Origin: a virus
Strand: one strand, 5' to 3'
DNA: 64,000 bases
Virus record (IMG/VR): IMGVR_UViG_3300029131_000181
Shown here: positions 442 through 30,332 of the stretch, one piece after another
Position numbering within the stretch: position 1 is the first letter of the stretch
Layout: the number at the start of each line of letters is the position of its first letter
Made by a program: the position numbers and the translations under genes
The notes under the pieces: generated by a model
Databases searched by the model: none
Seen by the model: only the letters and a program-made list of their open reading frames with translations
What the model was told of the DNA's origin: nothing

Positions 442-445
442 GCAA

Positions 446-7809: not shown

Positions 7810-7850
7810 CAAAAAAAGCGGACCTACCCCGCTATGGGATAAGTCCGCTT
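7810..7850 (-). terminator. leader hairpin + U-run between promoter and RBS
   Basis: Minus strand AAGCGGAC-loop-GTCCGCTTTTTTTGTTGAAAGGAG, followed by ATG 7792. Confidence 0.65.
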
Positions 7851-7901: not shown

Positions 7902-7929
7902 ATTGTACGGCGTTCGTATATTTTGGCAA
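7902..7929 (-). promoter_or_regulatory. motif-class promoter, copy 3 (degenerate core)
   Basis: TTGCCA-AAATATACGAACGCCG-TACAAT. Confidence 0.45.
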
Positions 7930-14577: not shown

Positions 14578-14760
14578 CGGACTTCCAACTTTTCACGGGT
14601 TGCCCCGTTACTCAGTATGGATTTCTGCTTCATAGAGCGAGCTTACCGCAAGCCGCAGCTCTTGATAGAGGCTCGCTCTCCACAGACTTTAAGATTCGGT
14701 CGTCCTGACCGTACTGTTCGCCTGTGGTTATGAGGCGGCTGGCGTAGCCAGCATGTCCAT
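14578..14760 (-). ncRNA. TnpB omega RNA / right-end region (extent approximate)
   Basis: GC-rich nested hairpins overlapping and following the tnpB 3' end (GAGAGCGAGCC...GGCTCGCTCTA, CGGGGCAACCCG). By analogy to characterised TnpB loci. Confidence 0.5.
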
Positions 14761-15837
14761 TCCTTTCTTTAGAATGTTTTCTGCTGCATTTTTATCCCTA
14801 TCGTGTGATGTGTTACATTTCGGACAGACCCAATGCCGAACATTGAGGTTTTTTACCTCTTTGTTTTGGTAGCCGCAGCAAGAGCAGGTCTGGCTGCTTG
14901 GATAGAAGGTTGGTATTTTTACAACTACTCTTCCTGCCCAACTGGATTTATAATCAAGTTGTCGGAAGAACTCTCCCCAAGAAACATCGGAAATACTTTT
15001 AGCAAGGTTATGATTGCGAACCATACCATTTACATTGAGGTCTTCTACACAGATGATTTGGTTTTCTTTCACCAGTGTAGATGACAACTTGTGTAGGGCA
15101 TCTTTTCGCTTATTGGTCACTTTTTCGTGGCAGCAAGCCACCTTGATACGTTGCTTCTCCCAGTTGGCAGAACCTTTCTTTTTGCGTGACAGCTTTTTCT
15201 GCTCACGCTTTAGTTTAGCTTCCGCTTTCTGAAGATATTTATTGTTTGGATATTCTTTTCCATTGCTGTCAACAGCAAAAGATTTGATGCCAACATCTAA
15301 ACCGATGACGGTATCTTTAACCGGAAGCGGCATTACTTCTACTTTGCAAAGAATACTTACATAGTATTTGCCGCTTGCTGAGCGACGGATTGTTGCCTTA
15401 CAGATGCGTCCCTCAATGTTGCGACTCTTACGATAACGCATCTTCCCAAGTGTCGGAAGCTGAATGTACTTATCGTCAACTTTAATGCTTTTTGCTTTTG
15501 TAGTTGTATAGCTTTCTTCTCCCCGTTTTCGTTTGAATTGGGGGAACCCTTTACCGTCTTCGAAAAAGCCTTTATAGGCATTATTTAACTGACGACAGCT
15601 ATATTTGAGTGCTTGACTATCTACTTCAGCAAGCCAAGGAAGATAAGTTTTCATCTGAGGAAGCAGATTTTGTGTATCAATATAGCTCATACTTTCACCG
15701 CGCCGTTGATAAGCTTTTATACGCCTATCTAGCATAGAGTTATATACAAAACGGCAGCAGCCGAGCGTTTTATTGATTTTGACTTTCTGTTCTTCTGTTG
15801 GCTCTAGCCGAAATTTATAGCCTTTATGTACTTTCAA
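14728..15837 (-). CDS. tnpB: TnpB (OrfB) RNA-guided nuclease
   Basis: [18 protein letters not shown]-terminus, RuvC motifs ([26 protein letters not shown]) and zinc ribbon CSCCG..CPKCN. TTG start with AGGAGG RBS. Confidence 0.95.
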
Positions 15838-15921: not shown

Positions 15922-15969
15922 AACAAACAAAATGCCCCGGCAGCATCCAATTCAGAAGCCGCCAGGGCA
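15922..15969 (-). terminator. leader hairpin + U-run downstream of promoter copy 4
   Basis: Minus strand TGCCCTGGCGGC-loop-GCTGCCGGGGCATTTTGTTTGTTAAGGAG. Two G:U pairs are valid only in the minus-strand RNA. Confidence 0.55.
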
Positions 15970-15991: not shown

Positions 15992-16019
15992 ATTATATCT
16001 GATTCGCACAGATGTGCAA
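15992..16019 (-). promoter_or_regulatory. motif-class promoter, copy 4
   Basis: TTGCAC-ATCTGTGCGAATCAGA-TATAAT. Now separated from the helicase gene by the tnpB element. Confidence 0.6.
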
Positions 16020-16981: not shown

Positions 16982-17009
16982 ATTGTACGCAGTTCGCACA
17001 AAAGAAAAA
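16982..17009 (-). promoter_or_regulatory. motif-class promoter, copy 5 (weak -35)
   Basis: TTTTTC-TTTTGTGCGAACTGCG-TACAAT. The -35 overlaps the U-run of terminator 17000-17041. Confidence 0.5.
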
Positions 17010-17041
17010 GCTACCCAACAGCCATAAGGCCACTGAGCAGC
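17000..17041 (-). terminator. terminator of short transcript
   Basis: Minus strand GCTGCTCAGTGG-loop-CTGTTGGGTAGCTTTTTCTTTT. G:U pairs occur only on the minus-strand RNA. Confidence 0.55.
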
Positions 17042-17087: not shown

Positions 17088-17115
17088 ATGGTATGAGATT
17101 CGCACGCCGGGTCAA
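17088..17115 (-). promoter_or_regulatory. motif-class promoter, copy 6
   Basis: TTGACC-CGGCGTGCGAATCTCA-TACCAT. Confidence 0.5.
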
Positions 17116-17283: not shown

Positions 17284-18807
17284 TCAGGCAGCCATCTTCG
17301 CTGCGGTTTTGCCCTTCGGACCCTTCTTCCGTGCATTGGCTTCAAGCTCCTTCTTGTTGGTATCATACCAAACCTCGAACTCCTTGAAGTTGTTCAACGC
17401 CCAAATCTCAGGAGAAGCCTTGCGACCGTAAGTTTCTTCCAACAGGTGGATAACTTTGCGGCCAACTTCTTCCATGATTTCGGCATCGTATTTGCCGCCA
17501 CCGCAGTAAAACCCTTCAGGCATAATAATGTCGTATTTAGGGTCAAGAACTTCAAGCCCCGGCTCCAAAACGCGAATGCCTTTGTAGCCAGCTTTGCGTA
17601 CAGCTTCAAATTTGAAGCGGTCCTTTTCGGCAGCATCTGCGTGCGGATATTTTCCATTATACTCATAAATGAGTCTCTGGATATGGTCCACGAAGTCTAA
17701 TCCCAAAAGACTATTTTCGCCCAAGATGTTTCGAACATCAAAGAAGGGGTTGGCAATTCCGTTTTCACCGGCAAATGCCAACATGGGACGTGTGTAAAAC
17801 CACTCCGGCTTGGAAATGGCATTGATTCTTCGCATTTTGCAGTCGTAGCATCCAGTAAGACCGTTGTTCACAGAACGAACAATATTGTTAATTGCAGCTT
17901 CGAATTCTTGCCCGCAATCACGGCATTTGAAGAAGGCTTTTTTGTTGCTTTGAACAGTTACTTCTGAAGCAGAAAGCTTGTTTTTACTACTCCACATGGA
18001 GGCTGCTTTCGGACATTGCGACGCAAGGTCATTGATGCCGGGAACAACCCTCCGACCTACGCAAACTAGGCATCCAGTGTTGCCGTTTTTTACAGCACAA
18101 ACAACATCTCCAATTATGGCTTTGAACTCTTGCCCACAATCCGGGCACACAAAGAAAGCTTTTTTCCCGCTTTTAGCTGTGACTTCTGAAGCGGAAAGCT
18201 TATTTTTATTACTCCACATAGCGGCTGCTTCTGGGCACTGTGACGCAAGGTCATTGATGCCAGGGGCAACTCTTAGTCCTCTGCAAACAGGGCAACCTGT
18301 GTTTCCGTTACTTACAGAATAGACAACGTGTTCGATTTTGGCTTCAAATTCTTCCCCGCAGTCCGGGCATACGAATATCGCCTTTTTGTTGCATTTGACA
18401 GCAATTTCCGAGGCAGACTTTTTGTTTTTGTTACTCCACATAGCTGCAATTTCCGGGTATTTCGACGCAAGGTCGTTGATGCCGGGGATAATCTTTCTTC
18501 CTGCGCAAACAGAGCAACCCGTGAATCCCTTGTCTACAGAACGAACAACATTAAAGATTCTGCTTTCAAATTCCTGCCCGCAATCAGGACACACAAAAGT
18601 GAGTTTTTTATTGCTTCCAGTAGTAACTTCAAAGGCAAGTTTCTTATCTTTTTCGCTCAGCATTGCAGCTACTTTTGGGCAAGCAACAGCAAGGCAATTT
18701 TTCTTAACCACTTCATACGGCATCTCAATGCCAAGAGCCGGAATAGGAGCGCAAGAAGCGCAGTTGCAAGAGTTAGCGTGCATCATAATTTTCATGTTAG
18801 TATTCAT
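17284..18807 (-). CDS. zinc-ribbon repeat protein with C-terminal Vsr/DUF559-like domain
   Basis: Trimmed to MNTNMKIMMH (AAAGGAG RBS). Four 74-aa repeats of the form PGINDLAS..P..AAMWS.KNK.SASEV......FF.CPDCGQEF......V......GNTGC.VC. C-terminal LDFVDH..IYEYNG..H resembles the Vsr-like nuclease core. Confidence 0.75.
   Translation of the reverse strand: MNTNMKIMMHANSCNCASCAPIPALGIEMPYEVVKKNCLAVACPKVAAMLSEKDKKLAFEVTTGSNKKLTFVCPDCGQEFESRIFNVVRSVDKGFTGCSVCAGRKIIPGINDLASKYPEIAAMWSNKNKKSASEIAVKCNKKAIFVCPDCGEEFEAKIEHVVYSVSNGNTGCPVCRGLRVAPGINDLASQCPEAAAMWSNKNKLSASEVTAKSGKKAFFVCPDCGQEFKAIIGDVVCAVKNGNTGCLVCVGRRVVPGINDLASQCPKAASMWSSKNKLSASEVTVQSNKKAFFKCRDCGQEFEAAINNIVRSVNNGLTGCYDCKMRRINAISKPEWFYTRPMLAFAGENGIANPFFDVRNILGENSLLGLDFVDHIQRLIYEYNGKYPHADAAEKDRFKFEAVRKAGYKGIRVLEPGLEVLDPKYDIIMPEGFYCGGGKYDAEIMEEVGRKVIHLLEETYGRKASPEIWALNNFKEFEVWYDTNKKELEANARKKGPKGKTAAKMAA
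17790..18681 (-). repeat. 4 x 222-bp in-frame tandem repeat inside the CDS
   Basis: ACTCCACA landmark recurs at 17989, 18211 and 18433 (period 222). Limits approximate. Confidence 0.8.
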
Positions 18808-18927
18808 GATAGATTTCTCCTTTGTTATCAATAAAAATAAAAAAGCAGCCACCCTTCCCTCTTTTGAGGGCAAAAGCGACTGCTTTACGTTCAATGGGTA
18901 TTGAGTTGTTATTCATGAAGAATTGCT

Positions 18928-19113
18928 TCACTCGTCCAGCATAACCTGCAAACGGGCGTTGAATTCCTTCATGTCGGCGCTTTCCTCGGCTGCAGCAAGG
19001 ACACGCGGATAAATTTCCGGATTCATGCTCTTCAGCATGTTCAGAGTAGAAAGAAGCAGAGGGTTGGTGATAGTCATAGTAAGCATCTCCTTGTTATTCA
19101 TAGTAATGTTCAA
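18928..19113 (-). CDS. hypothetical small protein
   Basis: 61-aa ORF whose stop-proximal region is followed by the next gene. The upstream gene overlaps by 4 nt. Confidence 0.45.
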   Translation of the reverse strand: MNITMNNKEMLTMTITNPLLLSTLNMLKSMNPEIYPRVLAAAEESADMKEFNARLQVMLDE

Positions 19114-19952
19114 ACGTTGGTATTCGTGCGATGGCCTTTCAGCGTGCCCTTGTTGAACTGTGTCAAACGGGCGTGCTTCAGAACAAATCCGTCTTCGAAT
19201 TGAACGTCAACGGCGTTTGTGCTGATGATGCGAATGATGGTTGCTTTCGAGCCATCATTCATGGTCTTGGTCATAGGTCCGCTATACTCGACCTTAAAAT
19301 CGAAAGGAAGCGGCTTATGCTTGGTGCAGCAGGGACAAGAAGAACTGCCGTTATTGATGCAGTGGACAAGAGAATTCACGTGAGTGACGTATTCTTCTCC
19401 GCAATCCGGGCATACAATGACGACCTTCTTGCAGCTATTGGCACTTACTTCACGCGGGGAGAAAGCGTTTTTGCTGCTCCACATTTTTGCCACGGCAGGA
19501 GATGTGGTTGCCAAGTCATTGGTTCCGGGAACGACTTTCATGCCACGGCATACGGGGCAAGTGAAGGTTCCATTCTCGATGTCTTTGACCAAAGAGATGA
19601 TTTTTGTTGTGTACTCTGCATGACAATCAGGGCATACAACAATCACCTTTTCGGGACTGTCACAGCGAACTTCGTCGGGATGAATCGTGTTTTTAGGACT
19701 CCACATAGCTGCAATTTTGGGATACTTGGTAGCCAAATCATTGACTCCGGGAACAAGCTTTTCGCTATGGGTTTCTTCGGCTTTGAATGCCGTAGTTACC
19801 TTACGGTTTTTGACCGTTTTGAATCGGCAGACAGGGCAGGCAGTTACGCCACGCTGCTTAGCTCTAACAAGGTTTGCCTCGTAGGTTGTGTATTTGCAAC
19901 CGCAATCGGGGCAGATGGTGATGACTTTTTCGTTCATGTTAATGTTATTCAT
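19110..19952 (-). CDS. zinc-ribbon repeat protein (paralog of 17284-18807)
   Basis: Trimmed to MNNINMNEKVITICPDCG. Three CPDC..CPVC treble-clef-like units with VPG.NDLAT linkers. Weak RBS. Confidence 0.65.
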   Translation of the reverse strand: MNNINMNEKVITICPDCGCKYTTYEANLVRAKQRGVTACPVCRFKTVKNRKVTTAFKAEETHSEKLVPGVNDLATKYPKIAAMWSPKNTIHPDEVRCDSPEKVIVVCPDCHAEYTTKIISLVKDIENGTFTCPVCRGMKVVPGTNDLATTSPAVAKMWSSKNAFSPREVSANSCKKVVIVCPDCGEEYVTHVNSLVHCINNGSSSCPCCTKHKPLPFDFKVEYSGPMTKTMNDGSKATIIRIISTNAVDVQFEDGFVLKHARLTQFNKGTLKGHRTNTNV

Positions 19953-20008
19953 GATAGTTCCGGGTGCTGCTCTTGATGCAATCTCCACAGCGGGTCGGTC
20001 GCTTCTGC

Positions 20009-20044
20009 AAAACAAAAAGGACAACCTCAAAATGAGGCTGTCCT
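20009..20044 (-). terminator. leader hairpin + U-run between promoter copy 7 and gene
   Basis: Minus strand AGGACAGCC-loop-GGTTGTCCTTTTTGTTTT. Confidence 0.6.
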
Positions 20045-20100
20045 TGCAAAAGCGGAATGTTAAAAATAAATTGGTAAGTGGTATCTTTGATACAACATCT

Positions 20101-20128
20101 ATCATAGCCATCTCGCACACATTGTCAA
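20101..20128 (-). promoter_or_regulatory. motif-class promoter, copy 7
   Basis: TTGACA-ATGTGTGCGAGATGGC-TATGAT. Confidence 0.55.
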
Positions 20129-20129
20129 A

Positions 20130-20169
20130 CAAAAAAAGACCCTGCCCGCATTTTGCTGCGAGCAGGGTT
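20130..20169 (-). terminator. rho-independent terminator
   Basis: Minus strand AACCCTGCTCGCAGCAAAATGCGGGCAGGGTCTTTTTTT, after gene 20189-20509. Confidence 0.75.
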
Positions 20170-20188
20170 TGCTTTTGCACTGTTGTGC

Positions 20189-20509
20189 TTAGCCTTCAAG
20201 GTCGAAGGTGTAGCTGTCTTCTTTCATTGCAACAAGGCCCTTAAACGTCTGGCACTCGGCGTCGTCCAGGAATGCCTTGATGGTCAGGCTGGTATCCTCG
20301 TTATCCAGCCATTCGGGACGCATACGGACAACGAGGTCGTGCAGCTCTCCGACGACATAGGCCATCAGGTCCTGGTCGCCCAGGGCCTCACCAATTGCTT
20401 CATCATCGTATTCGACAGGGAAGCTGATGGAAGCGGCGAGGCCGTCGAGTTCGTCAAAATCTTTGGGACGGATTACAGTGGCTTCAAGTTTCAGAATGCT
20501 AGTGCTCAT
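20189..20509 (-). CDS. hypothetical acidic protein
   Basis: 106 aa, RBS AAAAGGAG. Confidence 0.65.
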   Translation of the reverse strand: MSTSILKLEATVIRPKDFDELDGLAASISFPVEYDDEAIGEALGDQDLMAYVVGELHDLVVRMRPEWLDNEDTSLTIKAFLDDAECQTFKGLVAMKEDSYTFDLEG

Positions 20510-20557
20510 GGTAAAATCTCCTTTTTGTGTGTTGTGGTTTGTCTTTCAACATTTTTA

Positions 20558-20585
20558 ATTGTACGCAATTCGCACGCTGTAGCAA
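20558..20585 (-). promoter_or_regulatory. motif-class promoter, copy 8
   Basis: TTGCTA-CAGCGTGCGAATTGCG-TACAAT, about 45 nt upstream of ATG 20509. Confidence 0.65.
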
Positions 20586-20639
20586 TACAAAATTTCTTAT
20601 ATTGGGTTCGCAATTTCTTGTATTTGCCTTGGGATTCTG

Positions 20640-20720
20640 CACAAATCAAGACCTATGAAAGGGTGAAATCCTACACAAATCAAGACCTTAACACACCCCA
20701 AAAACAACACAAATCAAGGA
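20640..20720. repeat. three direct repeats CACAAATCAAG(A/G)(C/A) spaced 34 bp
   Basis: Copies start at 20640, 20674 and 20708 (the third is shorter). Located just upstream of promoter copy 8. Confidence 0.7.
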
Positions 20721-20776
20721 TTTTGCTTCACCAATTCTTGCCGCCGTGTACACCGCACACCAGGCAAAACGCCTCA

Positions 20777-21070
20777 TCAATGCTCCTGCAGTTCATCGAC
20801 CTGAATCCGCGTGGGCCCATGAGCATGTTCCCGCACAAAATATAGGTTTCGCTCATGCCCCGGCCGCTGATACTTATGGTGTTCCCAAAGACATGAACGG
20901 TTGAGCCATCTCGACACATGGCAAACATTATATACGTCTCGCTTTCTGTTTTTGTTTCTTATCATTCTAGGCAAATCGCATAATGAGTCAATTTCAGACA
21001 TTCTGGAATAAGCATCCATTAGGCAGCGTTCCCTTTTGAGGTTGTTGGCTACATAATAACCACGTGGCAT
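20777..21070 (-). CDS. hypothetical protein (doubtful)
   Basis: The ATG directly follows the stop of the upstream gene. Atypical R/H/C-rich composition. Overlaps an alternative 66-aa ORF (20728-20928). Confidence 0.3.
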   Translation of the reverse strand: MPRGYYVANNLKRERCLMDAYSRMSEIDSLCDLPRMIRNKNRKRDVYNVCHVSRWLNRSCLWEHHKYQRPGHERNLYFVREHAHGPTRIQVDELQEH

Positions 21071-21886
21071 TTATTCTTCCGCACTAATCATCAGCCCATG
21101 AATGTAGTTTTTTGAATGGCTTTTCCCACTTTTTAACGCTTTTACATCAATAATAGCAGCTCTATAAATAGGCTGTTTCAACCTTCTAAAGCCATCGGAC
21201 AATTTGTCGTAATATTTATATGGTGCGTACCAAATCATGTAATCTGCATCACTATTTTTTATGATGCTTTGAAATTTTATATCATGTGCATAGAAGTGGA
21301 GCTGTGACGGAGAGACATAATTGATTTGACCTTTTTCAGGGATAATATAAGTTTGACCGGCGAAAAGTTGCGTATATGCAGTGGATTCGTCATAAACAAA
21401 AAATATAGTTTTGAAGTTTTCATGGTTTTGTTGGTAAAGTGGAATTTTGTTATTGTGACTCGAAACAACTCGCTCAAAGGAATCAAAATACCACTTGAAT
21501 TGATGGTCCTCCATTGTAGGCAAGTCCGTAACAGCGTTTATTACGACATCTTGTGTTTCGCTTGTAATGACGCCAGCATTTTTGAATTTTCTATACACTT
21601 GACTTTCTTTTTCTGCTTTTGGATTATATAATTTGCCTTTTTTCCCTTTCCTCGTATTATCCTCTATCTTCATAACATCCATCATAAGGCCATATTTATC
21701 CGAGTAAAAATCCGGTGGTGGTGCATTATGTGCAGAGGTATCTATCCATTCATTCCAGAAGTTTTTGCTTTGAATGATGGAACGCAGTTCCGCTTCTTCT
21801 TTTGTATTACATAATAAGCAAATTTCTTTTGTTGGCTCTGTTTGAAATTTACGAATTAACTGTTTTTCTGATTCAATCATAACCAT
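21071..21886 (-). CDS. hypothetical protein, AT-rich cargo gene
   Basis: Trimmed to MVMIESEKQ (AGAGGG RBS). Visibly AT-richer than its neighbours. PPPDFYSDKYGLMMDVMKIED could be a nuclease-type motif but is unproven. Confidence 0.65.
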   Translation of the reverse strand: MVMIESEKQLIRKFQTEPTKEICLLCNTKEEAELRSIIQSKNFWNEWIDTSAHNAPPPDFYSDKYGLMMDVMKIEDNTRKGKKGKLYNPKAEKESQVYRKFKNAGVITSETQDVVINAVTDLPTMEDHQFKWYFDSFERVVSSHNNKIPLYQQNHENFKTIFFVYDESTAYTQLFAGQTYIIPEKGQINYVSPSQLHFYAHDIKFQSIIKNSDADYMIWYAPYKYYDKLSDGFRRLKQPIYRAAIIDVKALKSGKSHSKNYIHGLMISAEE

Positions 21887-21904
21887 CGCCCTCTTTCTGC
21901 GAAA

Positions 21905-22018
21905 CAAAAAGCTTCCCACCGCAGTCAGTGTGATACTGATTACGATGGAGGATTAAACCTTTTGTGATAGTCTTATTATACCACGCTTCGTGAATTACTC
22001 GAATTACTCAAGGCCAAT
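21905..22018 (-). repeat. promoter + leader-hairpin cassette, copy A
   Basis: ~80% identical to 23285-23393. Contains TGGTATAAT (-10 at 21975-21980) and hairpin 21912-21951. Confidence 0.7.
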
Positions 22019-22052
22019 CTTAGTACACCCCTCCTTCAGGTGGGGTAGTTGA

Positions 22053-22080
22053 CTTGTATGAGGTTCGCATAATCGGTTAA
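22053..22080 (-). promoter_or_regulatory. motif-class promoter, copy 9 (degenerate)
   Basis: TTAACC-GATTATGCGAACCTCA-TACAAG. Confidence 0.3.
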
Positions 22081-22130
22081 CCGTCATACCTCATGAATCC
22101 GACCAGACCGGACTTTAAATTTCTTTGTAA

Positions 22131-22165
22131 ACAAAAAATAGTCCGCACAGAACTGAATCTGTACG
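22131..22165 (-). terminator. rho-independent terminator
   Basis: Minus strand CCGTACAGATTCAGTTCTGTGCGGACTATTTTTTG, after gene 22174-22638. Confidence 0.65.
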
Positions 22166-22173
22166 GGCTCGTA

Positions 22174-22638
22174 TTAGTCATGAGGATGTTCGTGGCATGG
22201 TTCAGGCGGCATACCATGCGGGTCAGGCTCTTGGAAGTGACCATGGTCCCCGATGATTTCCGAAGTACGGATACCGTTCGCTTTCCGGCAAGCCTCAATG
22301 GTTTTAGAAAGCACTTCCTTGACATCGCGCGGGTTCTTGATACGACGGATATCGATTTCCGGTGTCATAGCATCCGTGGAGCAGAGATGGATGCTGCCAA
22401 CACGGCACAGACGCTCATAGAAGTTCTGCTTGAATGCGATGTCCCGGACGCGGTACAGCTGAATCTCGTCCTCGCGCAAATTGAAGCAGCCACGCTGGAT
22501 GATGAGTTTGGTCTCGGTCAGGGTGTACTTCGTAAAGGATAGCGGCAGAGAAAAAATGGTGTGGCGTTTTCGGTCGGTCCAGAGAATTTTCTCCTTGTCC
22601 AAGTCGATGCCGAACTCGCCGTTTTTGAGGGTGGACAT
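22174..22638 (-). CDS. bacterial PH-domain (bPH_2/DUF304-like) protein
   Basis: 154 aa. The pattern KYTLTETKLIIQRGCFNLREDEIQLYRVRDIAFKQNFYERLCRVGSIHL resembles YdbS/YdbT-type PH domains. His/Pro-rich tail. Confidence 0.5.
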   Translation of the reverse strand: MSTLKNGEFGIDLDKEKILWTDRKRHTIFSLPLSFTKYTLTETKLIIQRGCFNLREDEIQLYRVRDIAFKQNFYERLCRVGSIHLCSTDAMTPEIDIRRIKNPRDVKEVLSKTIEACRKANGIRTSEIIGDHGHFQEPDPHGMPPEPCHEHPHD

Positions 22639-22730
22639 GGTATGGTTCCTTTCGTTATGTGATTGGTTTTGGTTATTGGTATTCTGCTTGATGGTGTGTG
22701 GAATGATGTTATAGTCTTTATATTGAGTAT

Positions 22731-22759
22731 ATTATACCATGCTGTGATGATTTTAGCAA
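22731..22759 (-). promoter_or_regulatory. consensus extended -10 promoter
   Basis: Minus strand TTGCTA-N17-TATAAT with TGG immediately upstream of the -10. Confidence 0.65.
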
Positions 22760-22815
22760 TTCCATTTAAAGTGTTAGTACGCAAACAAAGCCCGGTTCAC
22801 TATTGGTCTCCAATA

Positions 22816-23265
22816 TCAACCATTTTCTAGGTTCCCTGTGCTCTTGTTTGTTGCGGAAAGGACGTATTCTTTGCCGTATAGTGTTACCCAAAAATTGTTA
22901 CAACTACCATTAAAATAGCCACGATTTTTCAAGTCTTCGAAACGTAGGCGCGCTTTTCTTGTCGCTTCTTTTTGGTTTGCGTTGTTTTCTCGGTCTTTGT
23001 ATCCATTTCCCGTCATAAAAAGCATTCGCAATTCAGAGTTGTTATCAATCACTATAGGAACACTATCTTGACCATTTGCGAGTTCTAGTGCCTTTTTCAA
23101 TATTGTAATAGATTCCTTGCCATCAATCTTGGAAAGCCATTCTTCAGCGTCCTTAGTAGTCACTGTCACTTTTTCATTTCTCATAACAGCTTTTTTTCGC
23201 TTATTATGGTAATAAGTATAAATGTGCTGTGCCACAATTTTCTTGTCGTCATTTTCGCTTTTCAT
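22816..23265 (-). CDS. hypothetical protein, AT-rich cargo gene
   Basis: 149 aa, RBS AAGGAGG. Confidence 0.65.
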   Translation of the reverse strand: MKSENDDKKIVAQHIYTYYHNKRKKAVMRNEKVTVTTKDAEEWLSKIDGKESITILKKALELANGQDSVPIVIDNNSELRMLFMTGNGYKDRENNANQKEATRKARLRFEDLKNRGYFNGSCNNFWVTLYGKEYVLSATNKSTGNLENG

Positions 23266-23284
23266 ACAGAATCCTCCTTAAAAT

Positions 23285-23393
23285 AAACAGCCTCCCACCG
23301 CAGTCAGCATACTACTGATTACGATGGGAGGCTCAAAACCTTTTGTGATGGTTCTATTATATCACGCCTTGCGAAAAACTCAAGGCAAATTTC
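23285..23393 (-). repeat. promoter + leader-hairpin cassette, copy B
   Basis: TTGAGT-N16-TATAAT with a TGA extension (-10 at 23356-23361). An 18-bp imperfect hairpin at 23291-23331 is followed by CTGTTTATTTT and the RBS. Confidence 0.7.
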
Positions 23394-23399
23394 AATAAC

Positions 23400-23789
23400 T
23401 CAGTCAATATCTAAGTTACCAAAATCATCTGCAGGAGGCTCGTTGTACCAGTCATACTCCTCTGCTTTTTCATCATCCAAATCGTCATCAAAGAAGTCGT
23501 CATCAGTGACGGGAATGTCTTCCCTGATGTCCTGCTGTGGCACGAACGTGGCAGCGGTAGCGGTATAGTCGCCGTCTTCGAGCACAATCTGCACGGTTGC
23601 GATATCCCCTACTTTGGGGACAGAACCGTTCTGAACGGATGCATCGGGGTTACGCTGGACATCCACCTCGACATCGAGCGCCGGGATGAAGACCACGATG
23701 GTCTTGTGGGTGACGGTAGTCACGGTTCCGGAGTAAGCGGCTTCGTTTTCGTGAATGTCCTGGCGGACGGTTTTCTTAGTATTAAACAT
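23400..23789 (-). CDS. hypothetical protein with beta-rich N-terminal half and highly acidic tail
   Basis: 129 aa, RBS GAGG. Tail DDDFFDDDLDDEKAEEYDWYNEPPADDFGNLDID. A possible OB-fold/SSB-like organisation is speculative. Confidence 0.65.
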   Translation of the reverse strand: MFNTKKTVRQDIHENEAAYSGTVTTVTHKTIVVFIPALDVEVDVQRNPDASVQNGSVPKVGDIATVQIVLEDGDYTATAATFVPQQDIREDIPVTDDDFFDDDLDDEKAEEYDWYNEPPADDFGNLDID

Positions 23790-23799
23790 TAACTTCTAC

Positions 23800-24200
23800 C
23801 TCGCTGATTTTGTATGCTTCATCGTGGACCTCCCCACCTAAACCTTTCGGCTATAGTTGGGGCTTCTCCGTGGGTTGTAACCCCACGGTAAGTCTCTGCG
23901 TAACCCGAAGGTAGAGATACGACCCGAACTTAGCTAACAATGCCTGACGGCATTGGTCGCCACATAGGGGTTAGTCTCCCGCAAAGTTCTCGCAACACAG
24001 TGTAATCCCAACAGATGGGCCCGGGCTGTTGAGTCGCCACGGGGGGCTCAACAGTGAATGCAACTGTTTAAGGGAGTACAATGTGCATTGGGTTCTACGC
24101 TCAATGTCAGGAACTTTAGCCTTACACTGAGACCATGCCTTCTTTGACATGGGTTTTGTTACCTCGCGGATGAAATACCGGGCACCAATGTTATAATTGG
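23800..24200 (-). ncRNA. candidate large structured RNA or structured 5' leader (class unknown)
   Basis: ~400 nt with no ORF of 60 aa or more in any frame. Nested hairpins at 23832-23862, 23868-23888, 23893-23917, 23939-23954, 24026-24054 and 24132-24153. UUCG and GAAA tetraloops appear only in the minus-strand reading. Confidence 0.45.
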
Positions 24201-24353
24201 GAGCTAGAAAACCCGCAGGCTTTCCTGTGGTATGAACGGCTCCTGTTTTTGAATTTTTTTGTAAAATAACGACCTAGCAGCTTGGCCAACGGTATAGAAT
24301 GCATGTATAATATATGTATGAAATGATACTACATAACTGTCGGAGGAATCTTT

Positions 24354-24758
24354 ATGGCATTGCCCGGTATGCTTGAGCTTACGAAGGAACAAACGCAACG
24401 GCTTGTGAATATCATCGAGGATAAGCAAGGTTGTATTTGCAACGTATCTAATAGTATGCGCACAGTCTGGATTACTTCTGATGACGGTGAAAATGAACTT
24501 AGGGTTTCATTTCTTTGTAATTTTGCTTTGGTTATTTCACGTGTTAGGTTTTCTATAAAGCGTCATGGTACAATGTCTCTGTTGCTCGATGCGTTGAAAG
24601 AAATTTGCGAAGACTATGGTGTGCATCGTATCGTTATGCAATCTGTACTAACTCGTGAAATGGAAGTCTTTTGTCATAAAGCTGGGTTTCGAGCAGACCC
24701 GAACGCAACAATGGAGGTTGATGGGATTCTTACAGGGGATTATAAATTGGATTTTTGA
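24354..24758 (+). CDS. small GNAT-like acetyltransferase (tentative)
   Basis: 134 aa with GGAGG RBS 8 nt upstream and TATAAT at 24306-24311. KRHGTMSLLLDALKEICEDYGVHRIVMQS resembles GNAT motif A. Confidence 0.5.
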   Translation: MALPGMLELTKEQTQRLVNIIEDKQGCICNVSNSMRTVWITSDDGENELRVSFLCNFALVISRVRFSIKRHGTMSLLLDALKEICEDYGVHRIVMQSVLTREMEVFCHKAGFRADPNATMEVDGILTGDYKLDF

Positions 24759-24844: not shown

Positions 24845-25981
24845 TTACATATCCGACTTCGCCGCATTACACTTCTTGCACAGCATCTGCAGATTGTCAT
24901 CAGTGGTATGTCCGCCCTTGCTCCAAGGAATGATGTGGTCGCCTTCCATATCCTCAAAGGCGTACTCGGTGTTGATGCCATTTGCAACGCACAAGGGGCA
25001 CTTGTGACCCTGCCGCTCATAGGCGCGGAGTTTCTGCGACTCAGTAAATGCACGAAGGGACAGATGCTTTTCGTCGCGCCAAGTGCGGTCAGAGAGGATG
25101 AACGGGACAATGCCTGCCTTCTTGGTCACGTCATCATCCAGCACGAGTTTCTTGATATCAGCGTCCAGAGCGTTGCTATTATACTGCTTTGCATGGTACT
25201 TGTTGTAGAGTAGTCCCCATGCCTGTGTATCCGTAATTCCCTTCCGCTTGGTCGGGAACAACATTTTAGCCCAGTTGATTACAGACTGGAAGTAAAGCCA
25301 GAGGTCATTGGCGTCCTCGTCATGCTGGTGAATCGCCATGTACATCTGCCCGGATTCCAGACCATCACGGTCAGCAATCCACGCCAGTGCCTTTTCCAGC
25401 AACTCCTGCCGAATCGGGTTACCTTTCAGGTATCCGTCAGCCATCTTCGCAGCAACACAGTTGCGTTTCGAGAAGTAGTTCTTGGCATCGGCCAGCCACG
25501 GTCCTGTATAAGTAGCGTTCAGCAGCTCCTGCGGAGTCAACACCTCACCGGCGATGTTGATGCGCTTGAACCATTCCAGTTTCTCGGCTTCGGAGCCTTC
25601 ACAGATATTCACGGTCAACTCGTAGTCCAGAATTTTCTGTTTTTCCTCATCTGTCAAGTTCTGGAAGAACTTGTCGTTGCCGTTGATTTTGACGGGGAAA
25701 TCCTTGTTGACATACTGTGCAATGGAAATTGTCCGCTGTTGTCCATCGAGAACCTCGTAGGTATCTGGACCGGTCTTGGACCAGTACATGAGGTTCAACG
25801 GGAATCCGTTCATTACCGAATCAATGACGGCTGCACGCTGTTTATCGGAGAAGCAAAAATTTCTTTGGTAGCTTGGCCTAATCGTGAGGCGATTGTTGTA
25901 CCCATATACGCCACTGTCTCCGTCATCCGAATAGTTCTCTACAAGGTCGGATACCTTGATTTTGGTTTCTGTGATTTTCAT
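24845..25981 (-). CDS. DUF262 (GmrSD N-terminal-like) + HNH endonuclease fusion
   Basis: IRPSYQRNF..EVLDGQQRTISI is the DUF262 hallmark. C-terminal HKCPLC..GDHIIPWSKGGHTTDDNLQMLCKKCNAAK is an HNH motif. ATGA overlap with the upstream gene. Confidence 0.85.
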   Translation of the reverse strand: MKITETKIKVSDLVENYSDDGDSGVYGYNNRLTIRPSYQRNFCFSDKQRAAVIDSVMNGFPLNLMYWSKTGPDTYEVLDGQQRTISIAQYVNKDFPVKINGNDKFFQNLTDEEKQKILDYELTVNICEGSEAEKLEWFKRINIAGEVLTPQELLNATYTGPWLADAKNYFSKRNCVAAKMADGYLKGNPIRQELLEKALAWIADRDGLESGQMYMAIHQHDEDANDLWLYFQSVINWAKMLFPTKRKGITDTQAWGLLYNKYHAKQYNSNALDADIKKLVLDDDVTKKAGIVPFILSDRTWRDEKHLSLRAFTESQKLRAYERQGHKCPLCVANGINTEYAFEDMEGDHIIPWSKGGHTTDDNLQMLCKKCNAAKSDM

Positions 25982-26862
25982 AACAATTTCCTTTCTCTGC
26001 CCACAATGTTAATATCGTCAGCACTTTTTATAATTGCTTTTATTATATTCTGCGTCAACTCATATTTAGAAATTACATGCTTTTTGGCAGATGCATAAGA
26101 AGCGGCATTCAGACGCATCACATCCTTTTCTTTCGCATTGCGAATCAATCTATTCTCCTTTTGCAACGAAGAGTTGCTGCCGCATGATGTAACGCAGTAA
26201 ATTTTTGGCGACAATATTGTGATAACCATATGATTTGATAAACTATATTCTGTGCCTGTGTTATTCAAACAGCCTGTACCCAGCACAAGCCCTATATCCG
26301 GAAGTAAAATGGCGCTATTGTTTGCTTTATAGATAACGGTTCCTGAACTGTAATATCCAATTTTTACTTTATAGTAGTTCCACTCATTATCAGATAACTT
26401 TGGATGGTTCCCCGTCTGTATAAATTTCATGAAATTGCAAAATGCTTCTTCTGTATCGAACAGTTTTTTTATTTCGTCTATATACGATGGTAGCCTGAAC
26501 AGCATACGCAAGGCATACTCTCCAAGCCAATGCGCAGATTCTTCGGATATTCTATTTTCCGAATTCAAATAAGTTGTTTTATCAATTTCATTAAGAATTT
26601 CGTTCAACTTTTTCGCATCAGAATTCTCAATATCATTGCTCAGGAGTCCTTTTTCAATCTTCCCACGATAGCATTCGTTCCATTTTTTGAGCTCTGGATA
26701 TTCATATAAATTGTTTTCCGCTGCAATACCTTTTACATTTGCCCCTACATGTATAATTTTTCCAGTTTCCTTGTTATATACAAAAAAATTTCCGTCTTTT
26801 CCAGCGAATTTTTTCAGTCGGTATTTTGGCAAATAATGTTGATTTTCATTTTGTACCTTCAT
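25978..26862 (-). CDS. DUF4238-like protein
   Basis: Trimmed to MKVQNENQHYLPKYRLKKFA (AAAGGAGG RBS). The N-terminal HYLPK..LK.F signature is recalled from DUF4238. AT-rich. Confidence 0.6.
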   Translation of the reverse strand: MKVQNENQHYLPKYRLKKFAGKDGNFFVYNKETGKIIHVGANVKGIAAENNLYEYPELKKWNECYRGKIEKGLLSNDIENSDAKKLNEILNEIDKTTYLNSENRISEESAHWLGEYALRMLFRLPSYIDEIKKLFDTEEAFCNFMKFIQTGNHPKLSDNEWNYYKVKIGYYSSGTVIYKANNSAILLPDIGLVLGTGCLNNTGTEYSLSNHMVITILSPKIYCVTSCGSNSSLQKENRLIRNAKEKDVMRLNAASYASAKKHVISKYELTQNIIKAIIKSADDINIVGRERKLL

Positions 26863-27910
26863 CGCCTTGCTTCCTCCTTTTTCTGATAAAAATTCTCTGA
26901 TAAACTGCAGAAAGCTGCACGCCATCAGGGCTTACCGAAAAGTCGCTCCTTCCTCTTTTAACAACTTTTGGTGACATCTTATCTCTTAATGCACCAGAGC
27001 CGGAGATTGTTACGCCATCCGCCTTGAAGAACTTAAAGCCAAGGCTTGTATAATCTTTATCGGCTCTGCAAGGCGTATCATCGAACATGGAACCACCAAC
27101 AATCTCAAACTGCTCCGGATTATACTTATCCAAAAAAGTGATAGGCACGCCCATAACGCCTTCATAGTCCACCGGAATATTCGCAACCCTATCCACATTG
27201 ATGGCCATGTAGTTATCATAGCGGGGGTAGCGCTCTTCCACGTCCGGCAGAGGGTTTCCGTCATCGTCATAGTACCGCTGCCAGAGAATCAGTTTCTCGT
27301 GGCGCTTCTGGATGTCGAGGTTAGTAAACCATCTTGTTAGACCGTTGATTTTCTTTGTTATTCCATTGGGGGTATCAAACTCGGATGGTGAGCTATAACC
27401 AATCCACACTTTGTTTTCTTTCAGAAGTGGAAAAAACTCTTTGTATGTAATGGCGTTCTTATTCCCGATAATCAGGAACTTTTTGCCGTGCTGCATCAGT
27501 GTGCCAACATACTCACGGAATAAGCTGAATGGCGGATTGGTCACCACGATATCACTTTCATCCAGCAAGTCAAGGCATTCCTTGCTCCGGAAATCGCCGT
27601 TGCCTTCCAGCAGGGTTTTTACACCGACTTCCACATCATTATCATCTCCGCCCTCGTACTCCATCTTGTAGGTTGGTTCGGTGTGGTCATAGTGCGTAGA
27701 AATCAGCTTCTTTAAGCCAAGTTCTGCAAAGTTCAGGTGAAAATACCGCCAGAAAGCGGACCATGTCGGGTCGTCACAGTTGCAGAATACAACCTTGCCT
27801 GCGAAATGCTTCTTGTAGTGCCGCAATTCCTCTGCGACATCCTCGATTCTGGTGTAGAACTCATCATTCTTCGCGTCCTTCGCCTTATGAAGGTTATCGT
27901 TCTTTGCCAT
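26846..27910 (-). CDS. N6-adenine DNA methyltransferase (EcoRI-methylase-like family)
   Basis: Trimmed to MAKNDNLHKAKDAKNDEFYTR..VVFCNCDDP..LGLKKLI. Catalytic VVTNPPFS. Confidence 0.85.
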   Translation of the reverse strand: MAKNDNLHKAKDAKNDEFYTRIEDVAEELRHYKKHFAGKVVFCNCDDPTWSAFWRYFHLNFAELGLKKLISTHYDHTEPTYKMEYEGGDDNDVEVGVKTLLEGNGDFRSKECLDLLDESDIVVTNPPFSLFREYVGTLMQHGKKFLIIGNKNAITYKEFFPLLKENKVWIGYSSPSEFDTPNGITKKINGLTRWFTNLDIQKRHEKLILWQRYYDDDGNPLPDVEERYPRYDNYMAINVDRVANIPVDYEGVMGVPITFLDKYNPEQFEIVGGSMFDDTPCRADKDYTSLGFKFFKADGVTISGSGALRDKMSPKVVKRGRSDFSVSPDGVQLSAVYQRIFIRKRRKQGDEGTK

Positions 27911-27923
27911 GTCTATATCTCCC

Positions 27924-27959
27924 AATAAAAAATCCAGCACCGAATTACTCAGCACTGGA
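27924..27959 (-). terminator. hairpin + U-run directly before the methyltransferase RBS
   Basis: Minus strand TCCAGTGC-loop-GCTGGATTTTTTATTGGGAG. Overlaps the stop of the upstream gene. Confidence 0.5.
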
Positions 27960-29813
27960 TGTATTTTCCGTATTACAATGACCGCATGATGTTTTCTTGT
28001 TTTCTACAAGACTTTGGGTTATCGCAAAGCATTCGTTTCCGCAATCACATTGACATTTCCATCGAGCATGACCGTTTTGGCTTCCTGCTCTCTCAATGAC
28101 CTTTAGCTTACCAAAGTGCATATTAGCTAAATCGTAAGTTCTTCCTTTTTTGACGAACTTATCGCGTGATGGATTTGCTTTCAAAAAGGCATCTGCTTCC
28201 TCTTCTGTCATGCTTTCGTATTCATTGGCAAATAACCAATGATATCCTCCGGCAACTGTACGTAGCTTGTTGCAGCAGTTCAAGATAGGCGAACCGCCGC
28301 TAATCCCGTATTTAAGAGAAGCCTCTTTTGCTGTAGAAAATCTCTCTTTTGTTTCAACGCAAATCACACTCTTGAAGTGTTTTTGTTTATAGCATTCAGG
28401 GCAGTTATGCCCGTATACTCTATCGGCTATTATCATCTTGTAGGAATGACCGTTTTTGCATTTCCACCAGCATTTTTCTGCAGACCCGGATGAGAAATAT
28501 TCGGGCTTCAAATTCTTGTTTTTTTCGTAATCCCATTCAGCAACAATTTCAGGATGTTCTGTAGCAAGGTTGTTCTTTTCGTTCCGTCTTCTTTTGCCTG
28601 TTGTACAAACAGGACATGTTGCGTTTTCTTTTGCTCTGCCATTGATGGGTGCTTCCCATTTATGCCCGCACTTAGAGCAAATCCAATGAACCATTTCTGA
28701 GCTAGATGATGACACCATCATCGGGTCAATGCCTACATTCAGTTCGTAGTCCCATTCTTTCAGGAGTTCCGGATGCCGTCCGCCCATACTTCGTTCAGCT
28801 TTGTAATCTTTGTATTGACGATAGATGTCTTTTGAATCCTTTTGTGTATCAATGTTAGGTTCAGAAACGCCAAGCATCTCTAAGCATTGGCGAATTGCTG
28901 CGTCGAGCGTTGCGTGCCCTCTATTGTTTTCTCTGATGATATTCTCGCTATTACGAATTTCCTGAAGCCCATGCTCGCGAATACGAATTATCCGAATTCC
29001 ATTCTGCTTGCATTTTTCGGACTTTTCTTCGTCATTTTTCACTCTTTTCTCATCAGAATGGTATCGAACACCATCGTATTCTACTGCAGTGCGAATGGAG
29101 GGGATGTAAATGTCCAGCTCTTTTCCAATAACTTTCTTGTTTCCAATAACAGCCTCTGAAAAATACTTTTTTGCATAATACGCTACTGCTTGTTCTTGGA
29201 ACGAGGTCTGTCCTTTATCGATAGTGCTGCATATCGGGCAACTCTTGATACGCTGGATGTAATGATATACGCTTGCCTGCCATTCCGTGCCACAAGCAGA
29301 GCATTTCCACCATACAACAATATTGCTTCCTTGTGTCAGCATACTGACATCTACGTCCTTATTTTTTGCAAAGTCATAGTCTTGCATAGCTTCTGCATTA
29401 TCTACAAGCATTTTCGAAGCTTCGGTAATGTGTTTGCAACAACCGCAAGACTTCACTTTTCCCCGCAGCAAAGAAGAGCGATAAGCAACAAATTCTTTTC
29501 CGCAGCTACACATACAGTTATAACGAATGTTTCTATGCCCCGTGCTTCCAATCGCATCTTCTGCCAAAGAAATAACTTTGATACCGTTGTGTTCTTCGCC
29601 AACCAAATCCTGGTATGTACGTTTACGGTCTTTACCTCGGCAGTCTTTACACTTTAACCCTTTCAAGAGCGCGTCGATACCAATTATCATTGTGTTTCCG
29701 CAGCAGTTACATTTCACCAAATAGGTATCTGCTTTTGAATTAGAGCCGGGGATAGTTTCGAAAACTGTTAAATCTCCGTATGTTTTGCCTGTTCTATTTA
29801 TTTTCGCCGCCAT
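27945..29813 (-). CDS. mosaic zinc-ribbon / Vsr-like endonuclease / NUMOD-like HTH protein (homing-endonuclease-like)
   Basis: 622 aa. CxxC ribbons throughout. KELDIYIPSIRTAVEYDGVRYH is a Vsr/DUF559-type core. HPELLKEWDY..WICSKCGHKW is a DUF4379-like ribbon. FSTAKEASLKYGISGGSPILNCC..GGYHW is a NUMOD/IENR-like HTH. Confidence 0.75.
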   Translation of the reverse strand: MAAKINRTGKTYGDLTVFETIPGSNSKADTYLVKCNCCGNTMIIGIDALLKGLKCKDCRGKDRKRTYQDLVGEEHNGIKVISLAEDAIGSTGHRNIRYNCMCSCGKEFVAYRSSLLRGKVKSCGCCKHITEASKMLVDNAEAMQDYDFAKNKDVDVSMLTQGSNIVVWWKCSACGTEWQASVYHYIQRIKSCPICSTIDKGQTSFQEQAVAYYAKKYFSEAVIGNKKVIGKELDIYIPSIRTAVEYDGVRYHSDEKRVKNDEEKSEKCKQNGIRIIRIREHGLQEIRNSENIIRENNRGHATLDAAIRQCLEMLGVSEPNIDTQKDSKDIYRQYKDYKAERSMGGRHPELLKEWDYELNVGIDPMMVSSSSSEMVHWICSKCGHKWEAPINGRAKENATCPVCTTGKRRRNEKNNLATEHPEIVAEWDYEKNKNLKPEYFSSGSAEKCWWKCKNGHSYKMIIADRVYGHNCPECYKQKHFKSVICVETKERFSTAKEASLKYGISGGSPILNCCNKLRTVAGGYHWLFANEYESMTEEEADAFLKANPSRDKFVKKGRTYDLANMHFGKLKVIERAGSQNGHARWKCQCDCGNECFAITQSLVENKKTSCGHCNTENTSSAE

Positions 29814-29832
29814 ATTGAATTTCCCTCTTTAA

Positions 29833-29868
29833 TAAAAAATCCTATGCAGAATCTCTCTGCATAGGATG
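29833..29868 (-). terminator. hairpin + U-run directly before RBS of gene 29813
   Basis: Minus strand ATCCTATGCAGAGAGATTCTGCATAGGATTTTTTATTAAAGAGGG. Confidence 0.65.
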
Positions 29869-30111
29869 CCTTTTTACTTATTTGAATAAGGCTGTTTATT
29901 TCTTCCGTCTGAATCTATTATGTCACGGGCTGGTCCCCACAAAAAAATGAGCGTTAAATGTGCGGAAACGCACAAAAAACGCACGCACACATTTTTTGAA
30001 TGATGCGTGCGTTTATGATAGCTTTTATTTAATGAAATGAGAGAATATATAGTGGCACTTCAGAGTAGGGCTTTCTGCTTTCCCCTGTACCCTGTCGTTG
30101 ATGGATGCTTT

Positions 30112-30304: not shown

Positions 30305-30332
30305 ATCATATCCAATTCGCACGGATGCACAA
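30305..30332 (-). promoter_or_regulatory. motif-class promoter, copy 10
   Basis: TTGTGC-ATCCGTGCGAATTGGA-TATGAT. Confidence 0.5.

Follow-up and report, generated by a model that had tools for sequence, protein, structure and literature searches.

A promoter and hairpin cassette ahead of variable AT-rich genes in a putative phage-like element of human-gut Clostridia

Introduction

In T4-type phages, composite motifs of about 100 bp termed PeSLs combine a promoter with a stem-loop upstream of ORFans in hyperplastic regions and mediate the shuffling of those ORFans; promoter and terminator activity as well as mini-circle recombination have been shown for them (Arbiol et al. 2010 PMC2839356; Comeau et al. 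2014 PMC4122927). In phi027, a prophage of C. difficile, a sigma-A promoter is followed by a short RNA, RCd22, with a Rho-independent terminator and then by the toxic abiF gene. Most transcripts end at the terminator, RCd22 deletion raises abiF expression 17-fold and slows growth, and RCd22 itself carries a family-specific motif (RF03085) and binds its own toxin (PMC12373285). Here we describe a cassette of about 110 nt that occurs twice in a 64,000-nucleotide stretch of DNA, IMG/VR virus record IMGVR_UViG_3300029131_000181 (the whole stretch is termed the window), each time ahead of an AT-rich gene. We propose that the cassette is a promoter-plus-attenuator socket at variable slots of an accessory-gene island and that it doubles as a recombination handle, a reading we consider somewhat better than an even bet (probability of roughly 0.55).

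By analogy, PeSLs appear to be the closest known concept to this cassette. Both are composites of about 100 bp with a sigma-70-type promoter and a stable stem-loop, two features that were found here, and both immediately precede genes that are variable or orphan within a plastic region, represented here by 15 cargo clusters and a 149-amino-acid (aa) ORFan. Endpoints of indels and replacements fall within the motif, as seen in a homology break after the U-tract, a left junction at the 5' edge and mosaic cassettes, and the cassette is predicted, like a PeSL, to give expression and insulation to the adjoining gene. Unlike PeSLs, with which it shares no sequence relationship, the cassette belongs to another host phylum and another type of element, and its stem-loop lies inside its own transcript, whereas that of a PeSL lies upstream of, within or just before the start and so halts incoming transcription while sparing the PeSL's own transcripts. 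It is also present in one or two copies per stretch examined (two in 64 kb) compared with about 50 PeSLs per genome; the dispersed motif of the window, with about 20 copies, is a different promoter, TTGC-N5-GTGCGAATTGCGTACAAT, rather than the cassette.

For the order of promoter, terminator and gene, RCd22/AbiF appears to be the closest tested case. As in AbiF/RCd22 and in type III toxin-antitoxin systems, a promoter, a short RNA, a terminator, a ribosome-binding site and a gene would follow one another with no second promoter and with read-through as the only route to the gene, and as in AbiF/RCd22 the setting is a prophage-type element of Clostridia. Unlike RCd22, the cassette leader of about 65 nt has no Rfam match and stands before at least 15 unrelated protein families, so that it looks generic rather than cargo-specific.

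Results

Both cassettes, A and B, and all genes of the cassette region lie on the minus strand. Each copy has the same order of parts, namely a -35 box, an extended -10 (TGnTATAAT), a leader of about 15 nt, a hairpin, a U-tract, a Shine-Dalgarno sequence and an AT-rich open reading frame (ORF). The features of the region, in the direction of its genes, are:

23274-23395, minus strand: cassette B, in slot 1, directly 3' of the stop codon of a 129-aa gene (covariance model R1, 112 bits)
23356-23383, minus strand: predicted promoter of cassette B, with -35 TTGAGT (23378-23383), a 16-nt spacer containing TG, and -10 TATAAT (23356-23361)
23289-23333, minus strand: hairpin of cassette B, GCCUCCCAUCGUAAUCAGUAG/UGCUGACUGCGGUGGGAGGC, with one A.C mismatch and 2-3 G.U pairs (hairpin alone -31 kcal/mol)
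23278-23288, minus strand: U-tract of cassette B, UGUUUAUUUUA, followed by an AAGGAGG Shine-Dalgarno sequence
22816-23265, minus strand: 149-aa cargo gene, GC 0.38 (cargo cluster K02)
22731-22759, minus strand: the bPH gene's own predicted promoter, TTGCTA-17-TATAAT with TG
22174-22638, minus strand: conserved bPH-domain gene of 154 aa (PF03703, E 2e-15), which bounds slot 1 on the right as a constant flank and has about 98% identity among relatives
22143-22166, minus strand: predicted intrinsic terminator of the bPH gene
22004-22087, minus strand: truncated small ORF of 27 codons, which in relatives without cassette A is intact (66 aa) and has its own terminator
21896-22018, minus strand: cassette A, in slot 2, 3' of the bPH gene, with a 9-nt duplication TAATTCGAG/TAATTC (model R1, 93.6 bits)
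21975-22002, minus strand: predicted promoter of cassette A, with weak -35 TCGAGT (21997-22002) and extended -10 TGGTATAAT (21975-21983), read directly
21915-21949, minus strand: hairpin core of cassette A, its lower stem degraded relative to the consensus and its A-rich leader able to pair with the U-tract
21902-21911, minus strand: U-tract of cassette A, CUUUUUGUUU
21071-21880, minus strand: 269-aa cargo gene with ATG at 21880, GC 0.35; the ORF is open to GTG 21919 (282 aa)
21035-22004, minus strand: segment with cassette A and the 282-aa gene, present in the window and in contig L099, absent from contigs L001, L003 and L020

In a global alignment of 21895-22025 with 23274-23395 the copies are identical in 96 of 120 non-gap columns, the 80% identity given by an initial annotation of the window that was made from its letters and ORFs. 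Copy A differs by a 9-nt duplication and two 1-nt indels. The extended -10, which the initial annotation had assigned to both copies, is indeed present in each and reads TGATATAAT or, in copy A, TGGTATAAT; the promoter of copy A is nevertheless left with the weak -35 TCGAGT alone, because the 9-nt duplication displaced the original box. The -10 box is about 20-21 nt from the foot of the hairpin in both copies. A 35-nt core of the hairpin has two exact matches in the window against 0.00 expected from 100 shuffles. The annotated imperfect hairpin of about 18 bp is recovered as folds of 17-18 bp with one A.C mismatch and 2-3 G.U pairs. Copy B reaches -38.5 kcal/mol as sense RNA (z -7.4) and -28.1 as antisense; copy A, whose lower stem has lost one C and has GGGAAG in place of GGGAGG, reaches -26 kcal/mol (z -4.7) and -16.9. 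As annotated, each hairpin is followed by a U-rich tract, a ribosome-binding site and an AT-rich gene, and a bPH gene with its own consensus promoter lies between the copies. The cargo looks foreign, with a GC content of 0.35 and 0.38 compared with 0.46 for the window and 0.51-0.53 for the flanking 129-aa and bPH genes.

Copies of the cassette also occur beyond these two sites. A search for further copies, which the initial annotation had proposed, brought the number to 123 on related contigs, from the window, IMG/VR and human-gut metagenome stretches, with 74 distinct 97-nt sequences. A hairpin pattern found 21 IMG/VR contigs, a promoter-leader pattern, whose matches were mostly due to chance, added five real copies, and a slightly relaxed hairpin pattern found 88 stretches of human-gut metagenome contigs. 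The full cassette is also present on one contig (L215) of a Clostridiales metagenome-assembled genome, identified by a protein-anchored scan of GTDB genomes. INPHARED phages and PLSDB plasmids gave no match to either the 10-kb region or the 126-nt cassette, and model R1 detected no diverged cassettes beside distant bPH homologues (34-51% identity) in 27 genomes.

The contigs related to the window are flagged as viral in IMG/VR and reach about 190 kb. A protein of the window has matches among the hypothetical proteins of SPbeta-like phages, and an SNF2/ResIII helicase is 52% identical to the helicase of the Faecalibacterium phages FP_Lugh and Aster. At gathering thresholds, Rfam has a sole match in the whole window, unrelated to the cassette:

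43594-43663, minus strand: hepatitis delta virus (HDV)-like self-cleaving ribozyme, F. prausnitzii type (RF02682, 60.4 bits against a gathering threshold of 44)

This site is flanked by a VWA-domain gene and a 129-aa ORF. The element has the appearance of a large temperate phage, or of a phage-like element, from human-gut Clostridia, probably Faecalibacterium or Oscillospiraceae. As no structural genes were seen in the window, whose 64 kb are part of the element, we infer rather than observe its phage nature.

Comparison of the copies places the cassette at the boundary between constant and variable DNA. On its upstream side a conserved gene is contiguous with it; on its downstream side homology ends within or right after the U-tract, and the genes that follow differ. 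The first downstream ORFs cluster into 15 unrelated families (a minimum), including two DUF4238 groups, one DUF3800 group, the 282-aa family, the 149-aa family and several without a Pfam or PADLOC match. There are at least three upstream contexts: slot 1 lies behind the 129-aa gene, slot 2 lies behind the bPH gene, and on stretches that lack the 129-aa gene the cassette follows a GmrSD-HNH gene. The usual gene order is 129-aa gene, cassette, cargo, bPH gene and 106-aa gene. Two cassettes are present in nine stretches, including this window, with varied cargo pairs; in most relatives there is just one. The 282-aa family and one DUF4238 family are each found in more than one slot. With so many unrelated families behind the same cassette, the cargo cannot be regarded as core genes conserved among relatives.

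The window and contig L099 carry cassette A and the 282-aa gene as an insertion relative to L001, L003 and L020, in which the 66-aa ORF at this position is intact and has a terminator of its own. An identity of 14-18 nt, AAGATTGGCCTTGA, between the 66-aa ORF and the 5' edge of the cassette forms the left junction, which is common to all slot-2 cassettes. Within the cassettes, variant types of promoter, leader, loop and stem are freely reassorted, and in a 99-column alignment 553 of 703 informative site pairs show all four combinations in a four-gamete test. Such a mosaic would be produced by frequent crossing-over inside the cassette, and homologous recombination is the presumed mechanism of swapping. 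Given the mosaics, the sharp 3' break, the shared slot-2 5' junction and the same cargo across slots, the cassette would act as a homology handle for cargo exchange and the locus as a gene-swapping hotspot for interchangeable AT-rich accessory genes. It would mostly be cargo that moves between resident sockets, which are themselves occasionally duplicated, rather than the whole behaving as a free-standing mobile element. The view of the initial annotation, that the cassettes are portable expression and regulation modules for moron-type genes, is thus strengthened by the number of families, the number of contexts and the insertion itself.

Classical morons have no conserved flanking cassette, and their entry is thought to be by illegitimate recombination. 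The cargo genes resemble them in being AT-rich, in their presence or absence among close relatives, in their deviant base composition and in having a promoter of their own, but differ in sharing a flanking cassette and in having a terminator, as predicted here, before the gene. The predicted terminator at 22143-22166 ends the unit of 149-aa and bPH genes, and a direct reading of the sequence showed none beyond the 282-aa gene. Hotspots of antiviral systems in P2/P4 phages and satellites, as reportedly described by Rousset et al. in 2022, are defined by flanking core genes and have defensive cargo. The present locus is like them in its fixed slots between conserved genes with changing accessory genes, and unlike them in that a shared regulatory cassette marks the slots and in that the case for cargo defence is circumstantial.

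Among 59 different copies there is essentially no variation in TATAAT and hardly any in the TG of the extended -10. Across 60 promoter variants a TTGxxx or TTTACA box stands 16-17 nt upstream of the -10, even where the upstream sequences are unrelated, and the distance from the -10 to the hairpin is constant within 2 nt. The retention of the box spacing despite unrelated upstream sequence, combined with this constant distance, indicates that a promoter tied to the hairpin is under selection. In the same 59 copies 96.9% of stem positions pair in the sense strand (16.8% as G:U) compared with 82.6% on the antisense side, and in 56 of the 59 the sense strand is the more stable; the strand asymmetry of G:U pairs that the initial annotation had noted in the window is therefore a property of the family. 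The stem changes seen are one-sided switches between G-C and G-U or between U-G and U-A, plus a few double changes. The T-rich tail is kept in every copy measured (120 of 120), with at least four T in the 8 nt after the stem and a mean of 6.2. It sits in the zone where homology decays, and its sequence varies by cargo class while its T-richness is retained throughout.

Going beyond the initial annotation, we interpret the hairpin, situated between promoter and gene, most readily as an intrinsic terminator, a prediction that draws on the greater stability of the sense RNA and, most strongly, on the T-rich tail that always follows the stem. The 20-40 nt between hairpin and start codon contain a Shine-Dalgarno sequence only and no promoter fits there, so that the cargo must be transcribed through the hairpin; the cargo start codon lies at a median of 35 nt beyond the matched hairpin core. 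Minimum-energy and centroid folds of the leader before the stem (about 15 nt) gave no competing structure and no alternative antiterminator fold. Rfam searches at E values up to 10 over 20500-24400 returned nothing credible for the cassette, the abiF motif included.

The initial annotation gave cargo proteins of 149 and 282 aa. The first size stands; the second most likely becomes 269 aa, from the ATG at 21880, because relatives start at an equivalent MIESEKQL. The 269-aa protein has about 100 homologues in metagenomes of Clostridia and Bacilli and no Pfam domain. Homologues elsewhere lie between hsdS and hsdR of a type I restriction-modification locus or beside an Alw26I-type endonuclease and methylase (a type II locus), and a few database entries of the family are fusions or miscalls with methylase domains. 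A nuclease-like fold with a PD-(D/E)xK-like core is weakly supported for it. The 149-aa protein, an ORFan, is restricted to this family of elements and has only close relatives among 5.8 billion sequences; its structure model is unusable (predicted local distance difference test, pLDDT, 46). The two window cargo genes received no assignment from Pfam, PADLOC or PHROGs; PADLOC likewise matched none of 10 representative cargo proteins, most cargo families have no defence annotation by Pfam or PADLOC, and neither database gave a ToxN/AbiF-type match for any cargo. The initial annotation had described the cargo as moron-type and possibly concerned with defence or exclusion. The first description fits; for the second, the restriction-modification context and the weak nuclease-like fold make up a circumstantial case.

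A GmrSD_N-HNH protein (PADLOC REase_II, E 2e-129), a DUF4238 protein and an EcoRI-type adenine methylase are encoded in a row at 24845-27955 on the minus strand. The DUF4238 gene (25978-26925) is AT-rich, with a GC content of about 0.36, and as DUF4238 proteins are cassette cargo in relatives it may be former cargo that is now fixed in an operon.

The order of promoter, hairpin and gene is not limited to the cassette. The second promoter family of the window, TTGC-N5-GTGCGAATTGCGTACAAT, is marked by a conserved, nearly palindromic spacer, possibly the operator of a shared regulator. Its minus-strand copies include:

1594-1611, 6586-6603, 7902-7919, 15992-16009, 16982-16999, 17088-17105 and 20558-20575, minus strand: TTGC-N5-GTGCGAATTGCGTACAAT sites, first part
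30305-30322, 38392-38409, 41540-41557, 42751-42768, 46260-46277, 48147-48164 and 48314-48331, minus strand: TTGC-N5-GTGCGAATTGCGTACAAT sites, second part

In at least six cases a GC-rich hairpin with a T-tract stands between such a promoter and the next ribosome-binding site, as identified with a permissive terminator finder:

Promoter 38409: hairpin 38333-38357
Promoter 17105: hairpin 17011-17040
Promoter 16009: hairpin 15934-15968
Promoter 7919: hairpin 7819-7847
Promoter 6603: hairpin 6481-6510
Promoter 1611: hairpin 1506-1553

The leader hairpins of the different units share no common sequence motif. In addition, a repeated unit stands directly before the starts of two same-strand genes:

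27924-27967 and 29831-29874, minus strand: 44-nt repeated unit (AATAAAAAATCC-hairpin-GGATG-TTTT), with hairpins at 27934-27958 and 29841-29865

These units have no promoter and look like intergenic attenuators. Because at least six units other than the cassette have promoter, hairpin with T-tract and ribosome-binding site in this order, promoter-terminator-gene would seem to be the house style of the element, of which the cassette is the variable-slot version.

Several other features were recorded in the window. The interval from the 282-aa cargo gene to the 106-aa gene's promoter contains three direct repeats of ACACAAATCAAGNNY (20639-20721, plus strand) with an exact spacing of 34 nt; 0.2 are expected by chance, and the repeats resemble iterons or operators. 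A GC-rich non-coding segment of about 375 nt ahead of the 129-aa gene (23824-24199, minus strand) resembles, via relatives, the 3' end and downstream region of a TnpB-like gene, with 72% identity to 33639-33746; it is 97% identical to a copy beside a tnpB homologue in contig L017 and has no Rfam match. It is probably a solo right-end or omega-RNA remnant of an IS605-type element. OMEGA-type genes lie at 14728-15837 (minus strand), 32481-33812 (plus strand) and 53107-54504 (minus strand) and comprise a full TnpB (OrfB_IS605 and Cas12f-like TNB), a second TnpB-like ORF and an IscB-like RRXRR and HNH protein; an IS200-type Y1 transposase is also encoded. Three proteins with repeated DUF4379 domains are encoded by the ORFs 17284-18894, 19110-20180 and 27945-29813 (minus strand), and three tandem 222-nt repeats (17848-18513) lie inside the coding sequence of such a treble-clef zinc-finger repeat protein. 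The two copies of a 109-nt direct repeat (10907-11015 and 44101-44209) lie 33 kb apart and are 93% identical. Three adjacent paralogous ORFs at 23-901 (minus strand) encode helix-turn-helix (HTH)/Mor-type activators (Pfam Mor, HTH_23 and HTH_28), and NADAR-domain, PIN-domain and DUF3990 proteins are among the small window ORFs scanned.

Discussion

Our results suggest a model in which the cassette is a resident socket in the accessory-gene island of a large uncultured phage-like element of human-gut Clostridia. A strong promoter of the housekeeping type, with -35 and extended -10, would start an RNA whose first 65 nt or so consist of leader, hairpin and U-tract, and these parts together would form an intrinsic terminator. 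Cargo would then be made by read-through only, giving low, attenuated expression to any gene plugged in, and the socket would also block transcription coming from upstream genes. The approximately 110 nt shared beside unrelated cargo would serve as a homology patch for recombination between related elements and between slots, by which cargo is swapped, duplicated or deleted and neighbouring genes stay unbroken.

A number of points weigh against this model. Promoter firing and termination are predictions from sequence, the stem of 17-18 bp is longer than that of most intrinsic terminators, and the lower stem of copy A is degraded. The invariant A.C mismatch and an invariant U.G pair could point to a protein-binding site. 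A promoter placed before its own terminator is wasteful unless read-through is regulated or the RNA of about 65 nt is itself useful. Covariation in the stem is without statistical support because the copies are too similar, with shuffled controls equalling the observed values in about 40% of trials, and conservation cannot tell selection on structure from recent common ancestry. The four-gamete count could be inflated by recurrent mutation and by non-homologous columns of the tail.

The regulated form of read-through leads to an alternative that we regard as possible but unlikely, in which the hairpin is a conditional antitermination switch, a tight terminator passed only when a factor modifies RNA polymerase. 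The factor would be the lytic-programme antiterminator of the element itself or would be supplied by a superinfecting phage, and the result would be an element-wide switch rather than a constant leak. This accords with the order of promoter, terminator-like hairpin and ribosome-binding site in at least six further window units and with the promoterless hairpin and T-tract units between same-strand genes (27934-27958 and 29841-29865). Operons full of terminators are a hallmark of lambdoid N/Q-type control. Since the leader has no alternative antiterminator fold, any control must act in trans, yet no NusG/LoaP-, Q- or N-like protein was recognised among the approximately 60 proteins scanned in the window, itself part of the element, and the sole regulators seen among them are HTH/Mor-like; the gene for such a factor could be situated beyond these 64 kb. 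The absence of a common motif from the leader hairpins and the permissiveness of the terminator finder also count against a shared switch. As at lambda PR'-tR' with Q, a constitutive promoter would be followed by a close terminator and the downstream genes would need read-through. Unlike at PR'-tR', the present case revealed neither a gene resembling Q nor a Q-binding element nor a sigma-dependent pause signal that would convince, and single accessory genes rather than a late operon lie downstream. A riboswitch or classical attenuator was rejected, there being about 15 nt before the stem, no competing fold and no Rfam family. A broader and more doubtful version holds that the element as a whole runs on promoter-proximal and intergenic terminators through an unrecognised antitermination system into which the cassette is the plug, with a competitor phage perhaps triggering toxic defence genes. 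If read-through were set off by an infecting competitor phage, the sockets would provide a generic, cargo-independent arming of abortive-infection genes.

It is also conceivable, at odds we consider poor, that promoter and hairpin are a gene for a small RNA of about 65 nt, acting as a trans regulator, RNA antitoxin or decoy, and that read-through into the cargo is secondary. The architecture is like that of type III toxin-antitoxin systems and of AbiF/RCd22, in both of which an abundant short RNA that ends at the terminator is functional (PMC12373285). The initial transcript AUCACAA(A/C)AGG is nearly invariant in the 59 distinct copies, whereas the sequence between the -10 and the transcript start varies, and the mismatch and wobble positions of the stem are invariant as well. 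An identical RNA before at least 15 unrelated protein families is, however, not a cargo-specific antitoxin, the RNA lacks an Rfam match at E values up to 10 and internal repeats of the ToxI type, and window sites complementary or identical to the leader show no excess (14 against 9.4 expected). A type III antitoxin as such was rejected, with no ToxI repeats or RF03085 motif, the same RNA before 15 families and no ToxN/AbiF-type cargo.

That the hairpin is an element of RNA processing or stability, either an RNase III-type site or a 5' stabiliser, rather than a terminator seems slightly less probable still. Early-gene intervals of T7 and SP82 carry RNase III-type sites, and a long imperfect stem with a conserved internal mismatch between same-strand genes resembles such phage sites. 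A processing site, however, needs no T-rich tail, and here one is kept in all 120 copies despite turnover of its sequence; the stem of 17-18 bp is short for RNase III, and at about 13-15 nt from the predicted start it is too far away for a 5'-terminal stabiliser.

Least probable by far is a recombination site acting at the DNA level, in the manner of an integron attC or of an IS200/IS605 end used by a Y1 transposase, and this candidate was rejected: imperfect palindromes in direct orientation do flank a gene block, the window does encode an IS200-type Y1 transposase and several TnpB/IscB genes, and variable DNA does start about 10 nt past the hairpin foot, but most relatives have a single copy rather than a pair, conservation reaches about 75 nt upstream across promoter boxes under selection that lie inside the conserved unit, the strand asymmetry is of the G.U type that fits RNA, no integron integrase was seen among the scanned proteins, the left junction is a plain identity of 14-18 nt, and inspection by eye, with no tool search, revealed neither an attC R-box (GTTRRRY) nor a similar hairpin beside the TnpA/TnpB genes of the window.

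If the cassette is a socket combining promoter, attenuator and recombination handle, then shuffling cassettes of the PeSL kind are not peculiar to T4-type phages of Gram-negative bacteria, and such cassettes, with the promoter ahead of a terminator, would also be present in large phage-like elements of human-gut Clostridia, that is, of gut Firmicutes. The cassette further points to terminator-based control across the element. Its 40-nt hairpin also makes a practical bait, as one pattern search yielded more than 120 slots and at least 15 families of unknown AT-rich proteins. The families so recovered, among them two groups of DUF4238, one of DUF3800 and a nuclease-like family that is located within restriction-modification loci elsewhere, form a candidate list of defence and counter-defence genes for a poorly studied group of hosts.

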